This document shows, in pieces, positions 22,212-30,268 of a stretch of DNA of 64,000 nt. The stretch's first letter is position 1; each line of letters starts with the position of its first letter. Below the pieces are notes generated by a model. The model saw only the letters and a program-made list of their open reading frames with translations, was not told where the DNA came from and did no database searches. The DNA is taken from IMG/VR virus record IMGVR_UViG_3300031774_000001. One strand, written 5' to 3'. The DNA is from a virus. The position numbers and the translations under genes are program-made.

Positions 22212-23408
22212 ATGAAAATATTATGTATATTATATGATGACCCAAAAGACGGAATGCCAAAATCATATCCAGTCAAAGACTTACCAAAATTAGAAAAGTA
22301 TCCAGATGGTATGACATTACCATCTCCTAAAGGAAGAGATTTCAACGCAGGAGAATTATTAGGTTGTGTTTCTGGTGAATTAGGATTAAGAAAATTTTTA
22401 GAAGACGCAGGACATACTTTAGTAGTTACGTCTGATAAAGACGCTGATGGTTGTACAGCAGATAAAGAATTAGTTGACGCAGATGTAGTCATTTCACAAC
22501 CATTTTGGCCTTACTATCTAACAAGAAAAAGAATAGAGAGTGCTCCAAAATTAAAGATGGCAATTACAGCAGGAATTGGTTCTGACCACGTAGATTTACA
22601 AGCGGCTATGGATCATAAAGTTGATGTAGTTGAAGTAACTTATTGTAATAGTAGAAGTGTTGCGGAACATATTGTTATGATGATACTAGCACTAGTTAGA
22701 GATTATCACAATCAATATAAAATAGTTAACGAAGGTGGTTGGCATATCGCAGACGCAGTTAAACGTTCTTATGATGTAGAAGGTATGCATATAGGAACAA
22801 TTGCCGCTGGTAGAATTGGTTATGATATGTTAAGAAAAATGAAACCATTTGATGTACACTTACATTACTTTGATAGACATAGATTGCCAGAAGAAAAAGA
22901 AAAAGAATTAGGTTTAATCTATCACGAATCAGTAGAAGATATGGTTAAAGTTTGTGATGTAATTAATATAAGTTGTCCTTTACATCCTGAAACTGAACAT
23001 ATGTTTAATGATGATTTAATTAGTAAGTGTAAAAAAGGTGCTTACATAATTAATACAGCAAGAGGAAAGATTTGTGATAAGGATGCTATTGCAAGAGCAG
23101 TAGAGTCAGGACAATTAAGTGGCTACGCAGGTGATGTATGGTTTCCACAACCAGCACCTAACGACCACGTATGGAGAACAATGCCTCATCACGGTATGAC
23201 ACCACACACTTCAGGTACTTCACTATCAGCGCAGACTAGATATGCAGATGGTGTAAGAGAAATACTTGAATGCTTTTTTGATGGTTCAGAAATTAGAAAT
23301 CAATATCTAATTGTTAAAGATGGAGACCTTGCAGGTATGGGTGCTCACTCTTACTCAAAAGGAACTGCTACTGGTGGTTCAGAAGAGGCGGCAAAGTTTA
23401 GGAAGTAA
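22212..23408 (+). CDS. fdh: NAD-dependent formate dehydrogenase (metal-independent)
   Basis: Follows the Pseudomonas sp. 101-type FDH along its length: ISQPFWP, TAGIGSDH, AAGRIG, DRHR, NTARG, GDVWFPQPAP, MTPH.SG, SYSKG.ATGGSEEAAKF. Confidence 0.95.
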   Translation: MKILCILYDDPKDGMPKSYPVKDLPKLEKYPDGMTLPSPKGRDFNAGELLGCVSGELGLRKFLEDAGHTLVVTSDKDADGCTADKELVDADVVISQPFWPYYLTRKRIESAPKLKMAITAGIGSDHVDLQAAMDHKVDVVEVTYCNSRSVAEHIVMMILALVRDYHNQYKIVNEGGWHIADAVKRSYDVEGMHIGTIAAGRIGYDMLRKMKPFDVHLHYFDRHRLPEEKEKELGLIYHESVEDMVKVCDVINISCPLHPETEHMFNDDLISKCKKGAYIINTARGKICDKDAIARAVESGQLSGYAGDVWFPQPAPNDHVWRTMPHHGMTPHTSGTSLSAQTRYADGVREILECFFDGSEIRNQYLIVKDGDLAGMGAHSYSKGTATGGSEEAAKFRK

Positions 23409-23574: not shown

Positions 23575-23660
23575 AGACAGTATATACCTTAGCGGGTATT
23601 GTCGCAGTATTAGGAATTGTTATAGGTATAAGTGGTTATTTTATATTTCTACTTATTTAA
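23571..23660 (+). CDS. 29-aa TM peptide
   Basis: MKTVYTLAGIVAVLGIVIGISGYFIFLLI; ATGA overlap. Confidence 0.4.
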   Translation: MKTVYTLAGIVAVLGIVIGISGYFIFLLI

Positions 23661-25281
23661 TAGAATAACAATTAATCTTTTCTTTTTTACCTTTTACGGT
23701 ACAAATACCTAGTTTATAAAACTTAAAGTCTAAATCTTTTTTAGTATTTTGAGATATTACTATTGTAGTATTGAAATCTTTACTCTTACCTTCTAATCTA
23801 CTTGCCAAATTAACAGCGTCACCAATGACAGAATAATCAAAACGTTGTTCAGACCCCATATTACCTACAAGACACTCGCCAGTATTGATACCTATACCAA
23901 TGTTTAAAGGTGGGTCAAACTCTCTACTCTTATTCATTTTTCTAACTGTTTCTCTCATTTCGTATGCAGATAATACTGCTAGTTTTTTGTGTTGAGGTGT
24001 ATCAAGTGGTGCGTTCCAAAATGCCATTATACAATCGCCCATATACTTATCAATAGTACCACCATTTTTTAATATTATACCCGTCATTGCAGTTAAAAAT
24101 TTGTTAACATATCGGGTAAGTTTTTCTGGATTACCTTTCATAGATTCCGATATAGGAGTAAAGCCACGTATATCAGAAAATAAAAACGTCATTTCTTTTC
24201 TTTCACCACCAAGTTTTAATAGAGATGGATTCTTTTGTAGTTTCTTAACCATATCAGGAGATAGGTAGTGTTCAAATTGTTTCTTAATTTGTAGTCTTAA
24301 TTTATTTTCTTTTGCATAGTTTTGATACGTTAATTGACCCCATATAATAGAACCTATTACAAGAGGACTAAACCAATCAGTTATGATTAAGTGTTGTGTC
24401 CATAGATAAGAACTTGCAAGTGTTAAATCAAATAAGTATCCACCAAACCATATCGCAGACCATATCACACTACATCTAGGTATAACTATGAGAAAGAATA
24501 GAGCACCTAATATTATAAATGCTAATTCACTATGTGGTAACCAATAAGGTCTACTAATAAAATTACCTGACAATAAAGTTTCTGTACTGATTGCCATAAT
24601 TTCGTGTGTGTTCTTTAAACCATTCGGAGTAGTTACAAACGTTGAACCTTTGAACGTTGTACCTATGAAAACTATTTTACCTTTTACAGACGACCAATCT
24701 TTATCAGTAAAATCTATTCTAGGAATATGGTGTCTGAAATCTATCCAAATAGTATCTTCTGCTGATGTTTTTGCATTGATAACTTTTAAGATAACATCAG
24801 GTATGGATTTATCAAGTGGTAATTTTCTTATAGTACCATCTATATCAACTGGTACAGATACATTACCTATTGCAAGTGCTTTACGTGAAATACTTTGTAG
24901 ATTTTTTACTTCATCCGTTTCAGTAAGTATGACTGGATATTTTGAAATCATTTTTAAAAATACTTCATCACCACCTAATCTATCTTTATGTGGGAAGACT
25001 ACTTGAAGAACTACTAGAGCGGCACCATTTTTATATGCGTTAATTATAACACGACCAAGTAAATCTCTTTTCCACGGCCATTGTCCATTCTTTTTTAATG
25101 CTTTATCTGAAATGTCTATTAGAACTAAACTCCTTGATTCATAATTCTTACCAAATGATTGGTAGAAATCAAAGGTGTTTAGCTTTGCTGTCTGTAGCAG
25201 TACTGGATTTGATAAGTATATTCCTAGCAATATTATCAAAGTTAGATATACAGTCCACGATTTAGCCAATATTTTAATCAT
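23653..25281 (-). CDS. CHASE2-domain class III adenylate cyclase
   Basis: N-terminal TM; CHASE2 (LIDISD..L...GQWPWKR, DIDGTIR); 3 TMs; FSDIRGFT, DKYMGDCIMAFW, FDYSVIGDAVNLASRLE, VKGK. Confidence 0.93.
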   Translation of the reverse strand: MIKILAKSWTVYLTLIILLGIYLSNPVLLQTAKLNTFDFYQSFGKNYESRSLVLIDISDKALKKNGQWPWKRDLLGRVIINAYKNGAALVVLQVVFPHKDRLGGDEVFLKMISKYPVILTETDEVKNLQSISRKALAIGNVSVPVDIDGTIRKLPLDKSIPDVILKVINAKTSAEDTIWIDFRHHIPRIDFTDKDWSSVKGKIVFIGTTFKGSTFVTTPNGLKNTHEIMAISTETLLSGNFISRPYWLPHSELAFIILGALFFLIVIPRCSVIWSAIWFGGYLFDLTLASSYLWTQHLIITDWFSPLVIGSIIWGQLTYQNYAKENKLRLQIKKQFEHYLSPDMVKKLQKNPSLLKLGGERKEMTFLFSDIRGFTPISESMKGNPEKLTRYVNKFLTAMTGIILKNGGTIDKYMGDCIMAFWNAPLDTPQHKKLAVLSAYEMRETVRKMNKSREFDPPLNIGIGINTGECLVGNMGSEQRFDYSVIGDAVNLASRLEGKSKDFNTTIVISQNTKKDLDFKFYKLGICTVKGKKEKINCYSIK

Positions 25282-25287
25282 ATACTA

Positions 25288-25313
25288 TATTTAGTACAGA
25301 TATCTTATAAATA
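25288..25313. promoter_or_regulatory. back-to-back late promoters
   Basis: TATAAATA at 25306-25313 (+) and ACTAAATA read on the - strand toward the cyclase. Confidence 0.6.
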
Positions 25314-25337
25314 TATACATCAACGAGAGAGAGAAAA

Positions 25338-25796
25338 ATGAGATTAATTAGTTTTATTTTAGCAGTATTATTGTTCGTTCCTAGTGCCTACGCAAGTGAA
25401 TTGGGGTTTAAATTTCATAGTCCATCATTTTCAGGTCAAGGTAAGTCTTCACACTATCTAACGATAGAGAACATTGAAAAGACTAGGAAAGACGCCATAA
25501 AAGCAGCCGAAAAAGCGGCGGCAGATAAAGTAATAGCAGACGCTAAAAATACAGCAATAGCAAAATTCAAAGCAAATGTTGAATCAAGATTTTATACAGC
25601 ACTTGCTAAACAAATTACAGACAACGTTTTTGGTACAGATGGTCTACAACAAGACTCTGGAACATTTACATCACCTATTGGTGGTGAAGTTGTTGAGTGG
25701 ACAACACCATCAGGTACAGGTAATGTAGTTGTAACTGTTACAGAATCAGACGGAACTGTAACGACATTTACAATGCCTAAAGAGGATAACTCATAA
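25338..25796 (+). CDS. csgF: curli assembly protein CsgF-like
   Basis: Signal peptide, then SELGFKFHSPSFSG (CsgF N-terminal F.NP.FGG motif); C-terminal V.VT...G.VT. Confidence 0.85.
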   Translation: MRLISFILAVLLFVPSAYASELGFKFHSPSFSGQGKSSHYLTIENIEKTRKDAIKAAEKAAADKVIADAKNTAIAKFKANVESRFYTALAKQITDNVFGTDGLQQDSGTFTSPIGGEVVEWTTPSGTGNVVVTVTESDGTVTTFTMPKEDNS

Positions 25797-26965
25797 TGTT
25801 TAAATACATAGGAATATTCCTACTTTCTTTAATGTTAGTGGGTTGTGCAGGTAAGCCAAAGTTTGATGTAAGAACTCAAACAGTTGCTTATAAAGATTTG
25901 TCAGTTATATCAGCACCGAAAGGCGATCCTGTTATAATTGCTGTCTATGACTTTTTAGATATGACAGGTCAAAAGAAACCTGGAGGAAACTTTGCGTCTA
26001 TGAGTACAGCAGTAACTCAAGGTTCATATCAGTTGTTGATTAAAGCATTACAAGACGCAGGAGAAGGCAAATGGTTTAGAGTAGTAGAACGAGCAAGTTT
26101 GCCAAGTTTATTACAAGAAAGAAAATTAATACGTTCTACAAGACAATCAATTAATGGAGAAGGTGCAGAACCATTACCACCATTATTATTTGCAGGTGCA
26201 TATATAACAGGTGGTATTGTAGGATATGATAGTGATATTAAATCAGGTGGTTTAGGTGCTAGAATATTAGGTATTCAAAGCAACAAACAATTTAGACAAG
26301 ATATAGTTACTATTATATTAAGACTAGTTAATGTACAAACTGGTGAAGTAGTTATAACAACTACTGTTGAAAAGACTATTGTTTCAACAATGACAGGTGG
26401 AGATATATTTAAGTACTTTGATACTGATACAATGTTATTAGAAGTTGAAGCAGGATATGCTAAAAACGAACCAGTAACTTTTGCAGTAAGAAAAGCAATA
26501 GAAAAAGGTGTAGTAGATTTAATTAATCAAGGTGCAGAAAAAGGACTATGGGAGTTTGAACCAATAGTTGAAGTGCCTGAAATTAAAGACTACCTAGATG
26601 AAACTGGTACAAGTGATATTAAAGTTGATATGGGTGAAGTAAAACCAGAAAAAACATATGAAGATTTTAAGAAAGAAAAGAAAGCTAGAAAAGAATTAAA
26701 GAAAGCACAAAAACTTGAAGTAAAAAATTATAATAAAAAACACGGTACAAAATTTAAAACTTGGGACGAATATCAAGCACATTTAGCACACTTAATAGCA
26801 ATTGAAGCTAAAGAAGTAGAAAAAGAAAACCGTAAGAACGGTATACAAGAGAAAATAACTGAAGAAGAAGAGTGGAACCAAGTAGACAAAGATACAGAAA
26901 CAAAGGAGAATGCTGATGAAAAAGATAATGATAGCGATAGTGATTCTTCTGGCGACAACGATTAA
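25796..26965 (+). CDS. csgG: curli secretion channel CsgG-like lipoprotein with charged C-terminal extension
   Basis: Lipobox LVGC; AVYDFLDMTGQKK, STAVTQG, WFRVVER, LLQERKLIR, GGIVGYDSD, NEPV. Confidence 0.93.
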   Translation: MFKYIGIFLLSLMLVGCAGKPKFDVRTQTVAYKDLSVISAPKGDPVIIAVYDFLDMTGQKKPGGNFASMSTAVTQGSYQLLIKALQDAGEGKWFRVVERASLPSLLQERKLIRSTRQSINGEGAEPLPPLLFAGAYITGGIVGYDSDIKSGGLGARILGIQSNKQFRQDIVTIILRLVNVQTGEVVITTTVEKTIVSTMTGGDIFKYFDTDTMLLEVEAGYAKNEPVTFAVRKAIEKGVVDLINQGAEKGLWEFEPIVEVPEIKDYLDETGTSDIKVDMGEVKPEKTYEDFKKEKKARKELKKAQKLEVKNYNKKHGTKFKTWDEYQAHLAHLIAIEAKEVEKENRKNGIQEKITEEEEWNQVDKDTETKENADEKDNDSDSDSSGDND

Positions 26966-27992
26966 AAGTTTCGCAGGTAATTCGGTCTGGATTCAACAAA
27001 ATAACCAAGATAGCGACGGATCAGTCTTTATAAAACAAGATGGTACTGGTAATAAAGTAGGTATATCTACTTCAGCACCATTTGTAATAGATGGTGAGAA
27101 CTTAACACTTATTATCAGACAAATAGGTGACAATAATGTAACCTCAATGTCTTCACACCTTGAATTGTTTGGTGAAGATATGACTGTAGATTTATATATC
27201 AAAGGTGACGCTAACGTATTAAGATTAGAAGGTGATACAGATTCAACTGGTCATTGGTATGATTTTGATGTAACTGGCAATTCAAATACAATGAGAGTTG
27301 ATGGTAATGATGATGACAATACTCATAAGACTAATATTGATTTAGATATTGTTGGAGACTCAAATGAGTTTTGGTTAAAAAGTAGAGGTGATGGTCACTT
27401 CATCTATGTTCTTATGTCAGGTGATTCAAACCGAGTACATTTTTATACTCATACAGACTCAGCAGGTTTCAATACAAACTCTAACGTATCAATTGGTCCT
27501 AACGTTGCTTCACACGGACAGTTTGCAGACACTTCAGGAAGTGAAGGTGCAACACTTGACGCATACATAATAGGAAATTCAAACAGATTAGATAGTTCCT
27601 CATACGGCACAGGTAACTATCAAGTACACGACATTATAGGTAATTCAAATATTATAGACTTACACGCTTCTCATAGTGGCGACTATGATTTAGCTACAAT
27701 TAAAGGTAACAATAACTATTTAAAAACTGTTATCAATGGCAACAGTAATGTTTTAAGAATACATCAAGAAGGTGGTAGTAATACTGCTAGAATTTATGTT
27801 TATACTTCTGAAGCAGCTGTTAATATGGCACAAACAGGTGGTAGTAATACATCAAACATTACCATATCAGGTGATTCAATTTACGATTATACATTAAACT
27901 TTACACAAAACGGTTCAGATAATTGTACATATTCATTTAATAGAAACACACAAACAGCAGACGTAACAGCAACAGTAGCTAATGGGTGTTAA
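26910..27992 (+). CDS. secreted curlin-like repeat protein
   Basis: Signal peptide; about 12 imperfect Q/I-x-G-x-x-N repeats (QDGTGN, QIGDNN, IVGDSN, IIGNSN, QEGGSN, QTGGSN). Confidence 0.75.
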   Translation: MLMKKIMIAIVILLATTIKSFAGNSVWIQQNNQDSDGSVFIKQDGTGNKVGISTSAPFVIDGENLTLIIRQIGDNNVTSMSSHLELFGEDMTVDLYIKGDANVLRLEGDTDSTGHWYDFDVTGNSNTMRVDGNDDDNTHKTNIDLDIVGDSNEFWLKSRGDGHFIYVLMSGDSNRVHFYTHTDSAGFNTNSNVSIGPNVASHGQFADTSGSEGATLDAYIIGNSNRLDSSSYGTGNYQVHDIIGNSNIIDLHASHSGDYDLATIKGNNNYLKTVINGNSNVLRIHQEGGSNTARIYVYTSEAAVNMAQTGGSNTSNITISGDSIYDYTLNFTQNGSDNCTYSFNRNTQTADVTATVANGC

Positions 27993-28127
27993 ATGAAAGC
28001 ATTTTTAACTTTCATTTTAATATTCGGTGGTATATGTTTAGCAAGTGGTATAATATGTACTATAATATCCTTATACTGGCCAGAAAAATGGAAAAGAAAG
28101 AAAAAAGAAGTTAAATTTAAAAGATGA
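27993..28127 (+). CDS. 44-aa TM protein with basic tail (not in ORF track)
   Basis: MKAFLTFILIFGGICL...KRKKKEVKFKR; coupled to both neighbours. Confidence 0.55.
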   Translation: MKAFLTFILIFGGICLASGIICTIISLYWPEKWKRKKKEVKFKR

Positions 28128-30268
28128 AAAAATTATTATTTTTAGTATCGTTTCTAGTACTCTTCTGTACTAGTGTATTTTCTCAAACTGTAGGAACAGT
28201 TATAGGACAAATGGGTACAACTTGGAATGAAAGAGGTGGTCAAATCCAAAATACTACAATGGGTTATGAGTTGCAAATGTTTGACTTTCTACAAACTGGT
28301 GAAGATGGTGGTATGATATTAAAGTATGCTGATAATACTAAATTTACAATGGGACCAGGTACAGAATTAACTATTGATGAATATTCTTTTGATACTTCTG
28401 TTATACCAATTCAACTTGCAATGAACGTATCAGTTAATGTTGGTACATTTACATACGAATCAGGACAAGTATCTACTTTAGGTGGTGAAGTTAATATAAC
28501 TGCTGGTAATGCCACAATTACAGTACAAGGTACTGCTTTTTCAGGAACAGTTGACTCAATGGGTGGGGCAACAATTACTTTACTACCTGATAGTAATGGT
28601 GAAGTAGGACAAGTAACTGTATCTAATGACGCAGGTTCTCAAACAATAACTAACGCTTTCAATTCAGTAACCGTTATATCAAATGATTTAGCACCAACAC
28701 CTCCAAAAATAGAAACTAATAAACAAAATATTATTGAGTTAGATAAATTTGAAGAAGAAATAAAAGATGAATCACAAAAGACTTTTGGTGATGTAGAAAA
28801 AAAATCTGAAATGTCTAAAGAAGAAACTAAAGCACAGGAGATGGAAGAGGCAATCATTGCTGAAGAAGCAAATATAGTAGAAGATAATAATACAATTGTT
28901 GCTACAGACTTATCTGTTGGTGAAACAGACGCAATAATTGAAATGGAATCAGTAGAAGAAAGTAATTTAGTTGAAGTTATAGAAGAAGTTGATACATCTT
29001 ATTATGATTCCTGGGAAGAAGATTTAAAAGATTGGGGTTATATAGATGAAGATAATCAGATTTCAGTTTGGGATGCTGAAGGTGAACAAACTATGGATTG
29101 GGATGACGCAAAGAAAATGTATGCAGAAATGGATCAAGCATACTTTGACGCCATTGATTGTTCAGATTGTACTTGGGATACTATTAATTGGGATGAGGTA
29201 GATTGGGACGCAGTTGATTGGGATGCTTACTATGACGAGTATAATGAATTATTAGAAGCATATGGATTAACTTCTTGGGCAGTTGAAGAAGAAGAGGTTA
29301 ACGTAGTTGAAGAAACTAAAGAAGAAACAGAAGCTAGTACAGTTGAAGGATATACTTGGGAAGATTTTGCTTTAGATGATGACTACTATAACAATGCAGA
29401 ATACAAAGCGGCAGGTGGTCCTCCAACATTAACTGTACAAAACTATTGTGAGTACAATGGATACGAAGACTATTGGTGCAACCAAGACTATGTTGATTAC
29501 TTAAATGATTGGTATAAAAATGACTGGACTTTAAAAGTAACTAACGATAGTTGGACTAAAGAATCTAAAAAGATATGGGGTAAATTATATGGTTGGTGTG
29601 GTAGTTATCCTAATTATAAAATGTGTGAAAATCAACCTAGACCTTGGAAGATGAAAGACTTAAAAAATATGTATGTAACTGACTGGAGTTGGTCAGATTG
29701 GAGTACATATTGGGACGCAGTATATGATTGGTGGTACACAGGTTATGATTATAACAATGAAGATGACCAAAGTAATTGGGAAGATGAATATAATTATGAA
29801 GATGATTATGATATAGACGCAGAATTAGAATTGTTATTAGCAAGTTATGATAAAGAAGACTGTTTAAATTATGGATACTATTGGGACAATGCCAAGTCTA
29901 GTTGTGGTACTGAATGGGTAGACAATAGTGGTTCAGAAACGCAAGTAACTGCTAGTGGTGAAACATTAAACTATTCTACTGGAGATGTAACTCAAACCTT
30001 AACTACAACAGATGGTGTAACAGGTGCGACTTCAAGTGCAACTTCAACAGGAAGAGTATCAACGTTAGACAATGATTTTAATGCTCAAGCGTCAACTTCT
30101 GGTGATTACACAATCATAAATAGATATAACGACAACCATAGAGCTTATATAAAGACTGAAACGAGTAAAGAAGCAGATATACAGATTTTACAAGATTCAG
30201 AAGCTCAACACATTGACGTAGGGAATTCCACTACACAAAATAATATTACAATAATACAAACGGATTAA
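28124..30268 (+). CDS. secreted FecR-domain protein with long acidic Trp/Tyr-rich region
   Basis: Signal peptide; D.LQTGEDG...YADNT.FTMGP.TELTIDEY...ATITVQGTAF (FecR domain); ends NNITIIQTD. Confidence 0.85.
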   Translation: MKKLLFLVSFLVLFCTSVFSQTVGTVIGQMGTTWNERGGQIQNTTMGYELQMFDFLQTGEDGGMILKYADNTKFTMGPGTELTIDEYSFDTSVIPIQLAMNVSVNVGTFTYESGQVSTLGGEVNITAGNATITVQGTAFSGTVDSMGGATITLLPDSNGEVGQVTVSNDAGSQTITNAFNSVTVISNDLAPTPPKIETNKQNIIELDKFEEEIKDESQKTFGDVEKKSEMSKEETKAQEMEEAIIAEEANIVEDNNTIVATDLSVGETDAIIEMESVEESNLVEVIEEVDTSYYDSWEEDLKDWGYIDEDNQISVWDAEGEQTMDWDDAKKMYAEMDQAYFDAIDCSDCTWDTINWDEVDWDAVDWDAYYDEYNELLEAYGLTSWAVEEEEVNVVEETKEETEASTVEGYTWEDFALDDDYYNNAEYKAAGGPPTLTVQNYCEYNGYEDYWCNQDYVDYLNDWYKNDWTLKVTNDSWTKESKKIWGKLYGWCGSYPNYKMCENQPRPWKMKDLKNMYVTDWSWSDWSTYWDAVYDWWYTGYDYNNEDDQSNWEDEYNYEDDYDIDAELELLLASYDKEDCLNYGYYWDNAKSSCGTEWVDNSGSETQVTASGETLNYSTGDVTQTLTTTDGVTGATSSATSTGRVSTLDNDFNAQASTSGDYTIINRYNDNHRAYIKTETSKEADIQILQDSEAQHIDVGNSTTQNNITIIQTD

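Follow-up and report, generated by a model that had tools for sequence, protein, structure and literature searches.

A FecR-fold protein as candidate partner of a CHASE2 adenylate cyclase in the curli-type secretion locus of an uncultured HTVC008M-like phage

Introduction

Why would a marine phage carry genes for a curli-type secretion system next to a gene for a membrane-bound adenylate cyclase? The question is raised by a locus at positions 23,653–30,268 of a 64,000-nucleotide stretch of viral DNA (IMG/VR virus record IMGVR_UViG_3300031774_000001, hereafter the window). Here, genes for CsgF, the pore subunit CsgG, a curlin-like subunit and an exported FecR-fold protein stand opposite a gene for a CHASE2 class III adenylate cyclase. 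The window has a GC content of about 30% and belongs to a T4-like marine phage, with Pelagibacter phage HTVC008M as its nearest cultured relative. The genome is that of an uncultured HTVC008M-like (SAR11-type) T4-like phage.

The phage curli block is already the subject of three papers. In 2020, Zaragoza-Solas et al. reported that pelagimyophages carry csgF and csgG along with three linked genes (PMC7029224). Buchholz et al. found the block in the OM43 phage Melnitz in 2022 and suggested that it acts in the timing of lysis (PMC9004378). In the same year Wittmers et al. described the full set of CsgF, CsgG, CsgA/B, FecR and adenylate cyclase from both podo- and myo-type pelagiphages, found the viral curli genes expressed in metatranscriptomes, traced their origin to Alphaproteobacteria and interpreted FecR as an iron regulator (PMC9599517). 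CHASE2 is mentioned in none of these papers. In the Melnitz GenBank record, the six annotated genes run csgF, csgG, curlin, FecR, curlin, cyclase, and the order in HTVC008M is identical. An earlier note on the window, drawn up from the sequence alone, had taken only csgF and csgG to be known in pelagimyophages, a view superseded by the publication of the whole block in 2022. What is new here is the reading of FecR as a protein partner of CHASE2, together with an analogy to adhesin plugs; the block itself was known.

Results

The six open reading frames (ORFs) of the locus were found at the coordinates given by the earlier note, as was the 56-nt gap between the two divergent units. Each plus-strand gene of the block touches or overlaps the next, with an overlap of one base between csgF and csgG. 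The cyclase had been described as the sole minus-strand gene, which is borne out for ORFs of at least 280 amino acids in the window, and the GC skew drops to about zero across it. That the locus is a rearranged member of the published viral type VIII secretion system (T8SS) region, with its genes intact, is scarcely in doubt. It has the gene set and the T4-like Kyanoviridae genome type in common with the pelagiphage systems of HTVC008M and Melnitz, and CsgC, CsgD and CsgE are absent in both. Sequence identity to HTVC008M amounts to 34% for the cyclase and 45% for CsgG. In contrast to HTVC008M and Melnitz, where the cyclase ends a co-linear operon, the cyclase of the window is inverted and lies upstream of csgF across the 56-nt gap. 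Moreover, at 714 amino acids the FecR protein has roughly double the length (~370 in HTVC008M and Melnitz), a second curlin/PA14 gene is missing, the CHASE2 domain is reduced, and a charged tail of ~130 amino acids extends CsgG. These traits mark the clade of the window as a whole, with FecR proteins of 714–798 amino acids against ~360–390 elsewhere, no separate second curlin/PA14 gene, a shortened CHASE2 and a charged, variable CsgG tail. A fusion of the 714-residue protein with the second curlin/PA14 gene of HTVC008M was ruled out, as no similarity was found. A histidine kinase before the cluster is constant in the podovirus versions (PMC9599517). None is annotated at the block in HTVC008M or Melnitz, and no Pfam kinase domain was found in the six ORFs upstream of the block in the window, where it should be noted that the published kinases are short and divergent (PMC9599517).

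The curli, FecR and CHASE2 cyclase genes form one co-inherited unit. Among viral loci centred on the cyclase, 36 had the required upstream flank of at least 6 kb; FecR was present in 36/36, csgG in 35/36 and csgF in 35/36. The reciprocal set, centred on csgG and limited to loci with at least 3 kb of upstream and 6 kb of downstream flank (n = 33), contained FecR and csgF in every case and the cyclase in 30, and none of its members has the cyclase without FecR. The viral loci with csgG show three layouts: 36 are co-linear, 10 divergent as in the window, and 1 convergent. These rearranged layouts are a stronger argument for linkage than the co-occurrence counts. A survey of 50,697 phage records found CsgG and the cyclase in HTVC008M and four Melnitz strains only, always together; a further CsgG match, in a 1.5-kb unannotated Salmonella phage entry, was set aside as too short. 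Independent distribution of the cyclase and the curli/FecR genes, named by the earlier note as one refutation of its reading, was seen in neither direction. Two viral contigs (L056 and L057) have the cyclase and no csg genes in the flanks examined (4.6 and 10 kb upstream). L057 encodes a 1299-residue FecR-domain protein 3.5 kb upstream of its cyclase.

The 80 closest bacterial cyclase loci are nearly all alphaproteobacterial, with 30–43% identity to the phage cyclase. A cyclase ORF was called in 79 of them, and in 32 of these 79 a FecR-domain ORF lies within 8 kb, mostly directly upstream and on the same strand. Chance adjacency would be in the range of 1%, as judged from six FecR matches in one 8.6-Mb genome. 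A single bacterial FecR–cyclase locus also has csgF and csgG (L083; RGCF01000015.1, labelled as a Bacteroidetes metagenome-assembled genome). This 46-kb contig carries csgF, csgG, FecR and cyclase along with several radical SAM genes, and because its neighbouring genes match phage families at E 2e-136, it is attributed to a pelagimyophage-like contig mis-binned into a bacterial genome. FecR and the CHASE2 cyclase are thus a genuine recurrent bacterial unit that exists without curli genes. Since the bacterial pairs occur without nearby curli genes, the pairing is independent of the T8SS, and joining it to the T8SS appears to be a phage feature. Related arrangements are on record. In Burkholderia a LysM-FecR protein adjoins a CHASE2 kinase (PMC5192318), in Campylobacterota a CHASE2 cyclase is accompanied by a FecR and a TPR protein and by a phosphodiesterase (PMC9239204), and in Sinorhizobium meliloti the cyclase CyaD1 occurs with the FecR-domain gene SMc02177 (PMC5498481). 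In Thalassospira the gene order is TPR, FecR, cyclase. The alphaproteobacterial pairs (e.g. CyaD1/SMc02177, Thalassospira, Bradyrhizobium) resemble the phage pair in cyclase architecture and in a FecR-fold gene directly upstream. They differ from it in lacking CsgG, CsgF and curlin, and in that the FecR-headed proteins often comprise 1300–2500 amino acids without a Sec signal.

The Bradyrhizobium-type partner is such a giant protein (1300–2500 amino acids, no Sec signal), with a conserved N-terminus, a FecR domain near residues 150–233 (Pfam 2.7e-8) and, close to the C-terminus, a weak RTX repeat. A gene of the Peptidase_C93 (LapG) family (3.5e-15) is its divergent neighbour. Of the 80 bacterial loci, 18 hold a homologue of this LapG-family protease; tblastn detected a BTLCP (LapG-type) homologue neither in the window nor at any of the viral loci. 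The trio of LapG-family protease, giant FecR-headed protein and CHASE2 cyclase recurs, for example at L096:542-10157 and L242:154-906 (Bradyrhizobium chromosome), and further at L155, L116, L106, L107, L139, L136, L112, L102, L138, L147 and L132. By analogy, this bacterial trio looks like a cyclic AMP (cAMP)-based counterpart of the Lap adhesin system. No connection between CHASE2 and LapG was found in the literature searched, and the LapG-type TAAG cleavage motif is absent from nine of ten giant bacterial proteins inspected.

The FecR-fold protein of the window is encoded at positions 28,124–30,268 (plus strand, 714 amino acids) and begins with a Sec signal. Its own match to Pfam FecR (PF04773) is weak and under threshold (E 0.0094; 16.8 bits versus a cut-off of 24). 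The N-terminal 200 residues align with the FecR protein of HTVC008M (E 4e-20), which passes the same Pfam model with 35.8 bits. In the AlphaFold model the FecR-type β domain occupies residues 22–212, with a confident β domain at 22–185 (per-residue confidence, pLDDT, mostly in the 80s). Structural comparison of model residues 51–212 by VIA-align gave Z 15.1 against 4m0n (BDI_1681) and Z 14.8 against PupR (6ovk_R); only the periplasmic fold (PupR residues 111–251) is shared with the latter. Because the HTVC008M homologue passes Pfam and the model matches FecR-type domains at Z 15, the predicted FecR identity holds despite the sub-threshold score. The secreted FecR-domain gene of the earlier note is thereby upheld in its fold, homology and Sec signal, and not in its own Pfam match. 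Model residues 20–117 further resemble the N-terminal domain of MpIBP (5ix9, solved by nuclear magnetic resonance; Z 11.1, root-mean-square deviation (rmsd) 2.2 Å, 74/76 residues). Domains of this type serve as the periplasmic plug that holds LapA-type adhesins in a TolC-like pore (PMC5550230; bioRxiv 10.1101/198937).

The fold follows the Sec signal directly, and the 714-residue protein has no second hydrophobic segment, transmembrane helix or cytoplasmic anti-sigma domain. Beyond the β domain, the model shows a disordered acidic linker (219–286), Trp/Asp-rich, partly helical regions and a C-terminal β region (607–712) that ends in ITIIQTD. A strand motif of the IxIxQ type ends all 46/46 viral FecR proteins inspected. 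In long and short forms alike, the C-terminus is a hydrophobic strand with a Gln two to three residues from the end (ITIIQTD, ITINQTN, IVIYQSE, VIIIRQGG), and the bacterial FecR partners lack it. The motif may signal docking at, or secretion through, the CsgG/CsgF pore. A curlin-like character of the tail found no support: when the FecR-protein and curlin families were compared profile to profile, the probability was 7.7%, and the likeness is a motif-level impression only.

The cyclase gene occupies positions 23,653–25,281 on the minus strand (542 amino acids). From hydropathy and Pfam, the protein consists of an N-terminal transmembrane segment, a periplasmic CHASE2 domain, a hydrophobic block (247–320) and a cytoplasmic cyclase domain. 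The hydrophobic segments at 10–31 and 247–280, the second continued by further hydrophobic sequence to 320, flank CHASE2. The CHASE2 match (PF05226; E 1.3e-27, 97.4 bits versus a cut-off of 26.3) runs over residues 15–262 and spans profile positions 3–254 of 257, albeit internal deletions make the domain shorter than in HTVC008M and in the other viral and bacterial forms. Its core, GQWPW.R and D100, R101 and D105 of the motif DR(L/F/M)xxD, is invariant across distant viral homologues. Guanylate_cyc (PF00211) matches residues 362–541 (E 3.7e-24, 85.8 bits versus 21.9). The catalytic set is complete, with D370 (FSD), K412 (DKY), D416 (GD), R480/D482 (RFDY) and N491…R495. We take D370 and D416 to be metal-binding, K412 and D482 to specify ATP, and N491 and R495 to act on the transition state, as established for class III cyclases. 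All seven residues are invariant in an alignment of 11 diverse viral homologues with identities down to 36%, so that the metal Asp pair, the ATP-specifying Lys/Asp and the N…R pair are confirmed as the earlier note had them. The protein is predicted to be an ATP-specific class III adenylate cyclase with intact catalytic residues.

Turning to the curli-type genes, csgF (25,338–25,796, plus strand) encodes 152 amino acids with a Sec signal, a predicted mature N-terminus FKFHSPSFSG and a match to Pfam CsgF (PF10614; E 1e-11, 45.6 bits versus 25.8). The lipoprotein pore subunit CsgG (25,796–26,965, plus strand; 389 amino acids, lipobox LVGC) matches PF03783 over residues 46–253 (E 5.5e-49, 166.8 bits). 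Residues 254–389 (window 26,557–26,965) form a K/E-rich C-terminal extension of ~130 amino acids that runs 56 nt into the curlin gene. Total CsgG length in the clade of the window is 328–474 amino acids with an extension of variable length; CsgG of the HTVC008M type has 266–347 amino acids, and the extension is short or absent. The curlin-like ORF (26,910–27,992, plus strand; 360 amino acids) probably starts at 26,916 and carries roughly seven units of a G[ND]SN repeat in addition to a Sec signal; Curlin_rpt matches a single one of these units (E 2e-5; 24.9 bits, above the curated cut-off of 20.7). The top match of the family profile among PDB sequences is E. coli CsgA (8ENQ, E 0.004). The AlphaFold model (predicted template modelling score, pTM, 0.73) is a series of short strands, for which VIA-align placed Pontibacter CsgA (8c50_A) first (Z 23.1 over 282 residues, 18% identity, rmsd 9.1 Å); the next β-helices reached at most Z 17.7, more than 5 Z units lower. 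Foldseek returned nothing at E ≤ 0.001 for this model, and CsgA was separated from other β-helices by the VIA-align re-scoring only. The 360-residue protein is predicted to be a curlin-type (CsgA/CsgB-like) β-solenoid that would be secreted through CsgG and form amyloid. A full-length, Sec-exported solenoid of this kind directly follows csgG in all relatives. The identities given to csgF, csgG and the curlin-like gene are borne out by Pfam matches above cut-off and a CsgA-like fold.

The divergent control region (25,282–25,337) comprises the 56 nt between the ATG codons of the cyclase and csgF. An exact copy of the T4-type late-promoter octamer TATAAATA is found at 25,306–25,313 on the plus strand, 24 nt upstream of the csgF ATG. 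On the cyclase side, ACTAAATA at 25,295–25,288 (minus strand) is one mismatch away from NATAAATA and ends 6 nt ahead of the cyclase ATG. Thus, of the proposed back-to-back late-promoter motifs, the one facing csgF is exact and the one facing the cyclase is not. In eight relatives of divergent layout, an exact NATAAATA stands 4–7 nt from the cyclase ATG, a spacing that would give a leaderless or nearly leaderless late cyclase mRNA. Upstream of csgF, NATAAATA is found within 80 nt in 43 of 98 distinct relatives, versus a background of 1.8%, and it never occurs upstream of csgG or the FecR gene. On account of this distribution, the genes from csgF to FecR look like one late operon. Scans of the region for sigma-70 promoters and terminators performed no better than shuffled controls. 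The window has seven copies of TATAAATA, all on the plus strand (4142, 7958, 15,250, 17,270, 17,664, 25,306 and 57,310), against 18.6 expected from shuffles, and this scarcity suggests selection against stray copies.

Contigs from RNA libraries of three studies cover all module genes; they show neither strand nor level nor mapped 5′ ends, and gaps in some runs are uninformative. Contigs from two of the studies begin at 25,319 and 25,321, 6–8 nt past TATAAATA, and on the cyclase side there is one contig that ends at 25,289, weak hints of transcript ends at most. One contig variant skips 27,963–28,142 and with it the stretch of a 44-residue ORF with one hydrophobic segment (27,993–28,127, plus strand), which points to an insertion/deletion polymorphism in the population. 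Neither a homologue of this ORF nor space for one was found in the relatives, the closest included. It is an insertion private to this genome, outside the conserved module, and drops out of the coupled set in which the earlier note had placed it. Just past the 3′ end of the cyclase, the window holds a full-length gene of the NAD-dependent 2-hydroxyacid/formate-dehydrogenase type (22,212–23,408; 2-Hacid_dh_C 4e-48).

Discussion

The locus may be understood as a composite of a curli secretion unit (CsgG pore, CsgF cap, curlin-like solenoid) and a two-gene envelope unit (FecR-fold protein, CHASE2 cyclase), both most likely transcribed late. In the mechanism that we propose, the FecR-fold head of the 714-residue protein would remain periplasmic, positioned at the CsgG/CsgF pore or beneath it, and the periplasmic CHASE2 domain would have this head as its protein partner. 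Through the cyclase, the condition of the secretion or fibre apparatus would be turned into cAMP. That the FecR protein and the cyclase are functionally coupled is probable. The mechanism as a whole is evenly poised between right and wrong, and the notion that fibre or pore state is the signal sensed is a tentative one that we would sooner doubt than accept. Physical FecR–CHASE2 contact, the outside-in direction and the target of cAMP are what we infer. An outside-in relay is plausible because the plasmid pCyaD1deltaCHASE2, encoding CyaD1 without CHASE2, causes constitutive cAMP production (PMC5498481), and because signal perception requires the outer-membrane protein NsrA (PMC13001267). Complex prediction for the FecR head (21–200) and the periplasmic part of the cyclase (30–252), both entered as alignments, gave a score of 0.00 and counts neither way. 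Regarding the single outer-membrane-to-cytoplasm circuit of the earlier note, the genes do form one co-inherited unit, whereas the fibre-state signal, the outside-in direction and cAMP control of lysis or exclusion are unsupported.

The resemblance to MpIBP invites a more specific form of this mechanism. The FecR head would be a periplasmic plug, the remainder of the protein would exit through an outer-membrane pore, and CHASE2 would read the state of the plug. The bacterial version would employ TolC-type pores, giant adhesins and a LapG-like protease, and the phage would have a miniature version built on CsgG. We regard this form as unlikely in its entirety, and the Lap system (LapA, LapE, LapG, LapD; MpIBP of Marinomonas primoryensis) is invoked as an analogy only, with no claim to membership. 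The likeness would consist in a folded N-terminal periplasmic domain, a remainder that exits an outer-membrane pore and an inner-membrane signalling protein that watches. Conversely, the phage has no type I secretion system and no LapG, and LapD was not seen in the Pfam results, no direct search having been made. Its pore is CsgG rather than TolC-like, and its protein enters the periplasm via Sec. The messenger would be cAMP instead of cyclic di-GMP, and the direction would be outside-in instead of inside-out.

Several observations weigh against the proposed mechanism. Because the middle of the 714-residue protein is predicted to be partly folded in the AlphaFold model, simple threading through the narrow CsgG channel is disfavoured. 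Three of the 33 csgG-centred loci (L197, L218 and L235) have csgG and FecR and no cyclase within 6–10 kb downstream, so that FecR has a role without the cyclase. The FecR-domain gene of S. meliloti is a target of cAMP–Clr and dispensable for signal perception (PMC5498481), and the FecR–CHASE2 pair could be a sensor and its output rather than a sensor and co-sensor. Five phage genomes that contain the block, including one with a completeness rating of 100%, yielded no cyclic-nucleotide (cNMP)-binding domain. Bacteria with FecR–CHASE2 pairs, in contrast, have receptors of the Clr/CRP type, and a cNMP-binding domain is present in 308 of 401 sampled alphaproteobacterial genomes, a tally that includes one unpublished genome (G228); the 20 listed without a match are small (0.5–2.8 Mb). 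All viral loci are related, hence the co-occurrence counts are non-independent events. Lastly, the RNA-library contigs fall short of proof of transcription or of 5′ ends.

Some of these observations are equally at home in the alternative that survives best, which we consider possible and still rather unlikely. Here, the FecR-fold protein belongs to the T8SS as a structural component or a chaperone, e.g. as a periplasmic gate, a plug or a nucleator in place of the missing CsgE/CsgB functions, and the cyclase acts separately, inside-out or in parallel, so that cAMP would be an input to secretion or host physiology and not a read-out of FecR. The presence of FecR in all 33 csgG-centred loci, three of them without a cyclase, would then be expected, as would the lack of CsgE, CsgC and CsgD in the phage block (PMC9599517), the conserved IxIxQ strand motif at the end of all viral FecR proteins, and the position of the S. 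meliloti gene downstream of cAMP–Clr and outside of sensing (PMC5498481). However, bacteria maintain the FecR–CHASE2 pairing without any curli genes, the phage operon is apparently driven by late promoters rather than by a cAMP-dependent regulator, and no cAMP receptor was found in the five phage genomes.

A second alternative turns away from fibres altogether. CsgG and CsgF may have been co-opted to serve as a lysis-timing or permeability device, gated like a secretin or similar to a pinholin, with the other genes modulating or accompanying it and no fibre being sensed. Such a role has been proposed for Melnitz, where no clumping of infected cells was seen (PMC9004378), and it would suit a late operon as well as the long, variable and charged C-terminal extension of CsgG in the clade of the window. 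The device would nevertheless have a substrate at hand, as a Sec-exported curlin-type solenoid with a solved CsgA as its best match is conserved after csgG. As the device would also leave both the strict FecR–cyclase linkage and the bacterial FecR–CHASE2 pair unexplained, we judge it improbable.

Quite improbable, too, is a cyclase that serves take-over or counter-defence, in which cAMP or the consumption of ATP would reprogram the host or block its response, CHASE2 would be mainly an anchor, and the curli linkage would reflect shared ancestry. The fully conserved catalytic centre is compatible with such an enzyme, and the missing phage cNMP receptor (five genomes) means that the target must be a host or an unconventional protein. 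A mere anchor is difficult to reconcile with CHASE2 core motifs that are invariant across distant viral homologues. Shared ancestry, in turn, is opposed by a linkage that persists through three rearrangements and by the presence of the FecR–CHASE2 pair in free-living bacteria.

An iron-responsive regulator that ties curli or pore import to iron availability, suggested by the Pfam family name and the discussion in PMC9599517, is very improbable for a protein in which the FecR fold follows a cleavable Sec signal, which shares only the periplasmic fold with PupR (Z 15) and has neither a cytoplasmic anti-sigma domain nor a transmembrane helix, and whose fold is also found at the head of giant adhesin-like proteins and matches the retention plug of an adhesin. 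The comparison with FecR/PupR anti-sigma factors leads to the same distinction: the periplasmic FecR-fold domain is held in common (Z 14.8–15.1), whereas the fold is N-terminal in the phage protein, and neither an ECF (extracytoplasmic function) sigma factor nor a TonB-dependent transducer was seen next to the phage FecR gene.

Conclusions

The value of the proposed FecR–CHASE2 mechanism lies in a sharper hypothesis rather than in a discovery, namely that the phage “FecR” is a conserved partner of CHASE2 instead of an iron regulator and that, as a further hypothesis, the FecR–CHASE2 pair derives from bacterial adhesin-linked systems. It bears on the role of the viral curli block as well as on what CHASE2 senses, and turns both into simple bench tests. 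If the FecR head were indeed a plug read by CHASE2, a class of ligand would for the first time be defined for the orphan CHASE2 domain, consisting of a protein and not of a small molecule, and the infected SAR11 cell would acquire a late, phage-made sensor that links its surface to cAMP. In the ocean no bacterial lineage is more abundant than SAR11, which, to our knowledge, lacks native curli genes. By equipping infected cells with a new outer-membrane pore, a fibre and a sensor that makes cAMP, such a phage block could alter aggregation, superinfection or lysis at very large scale.

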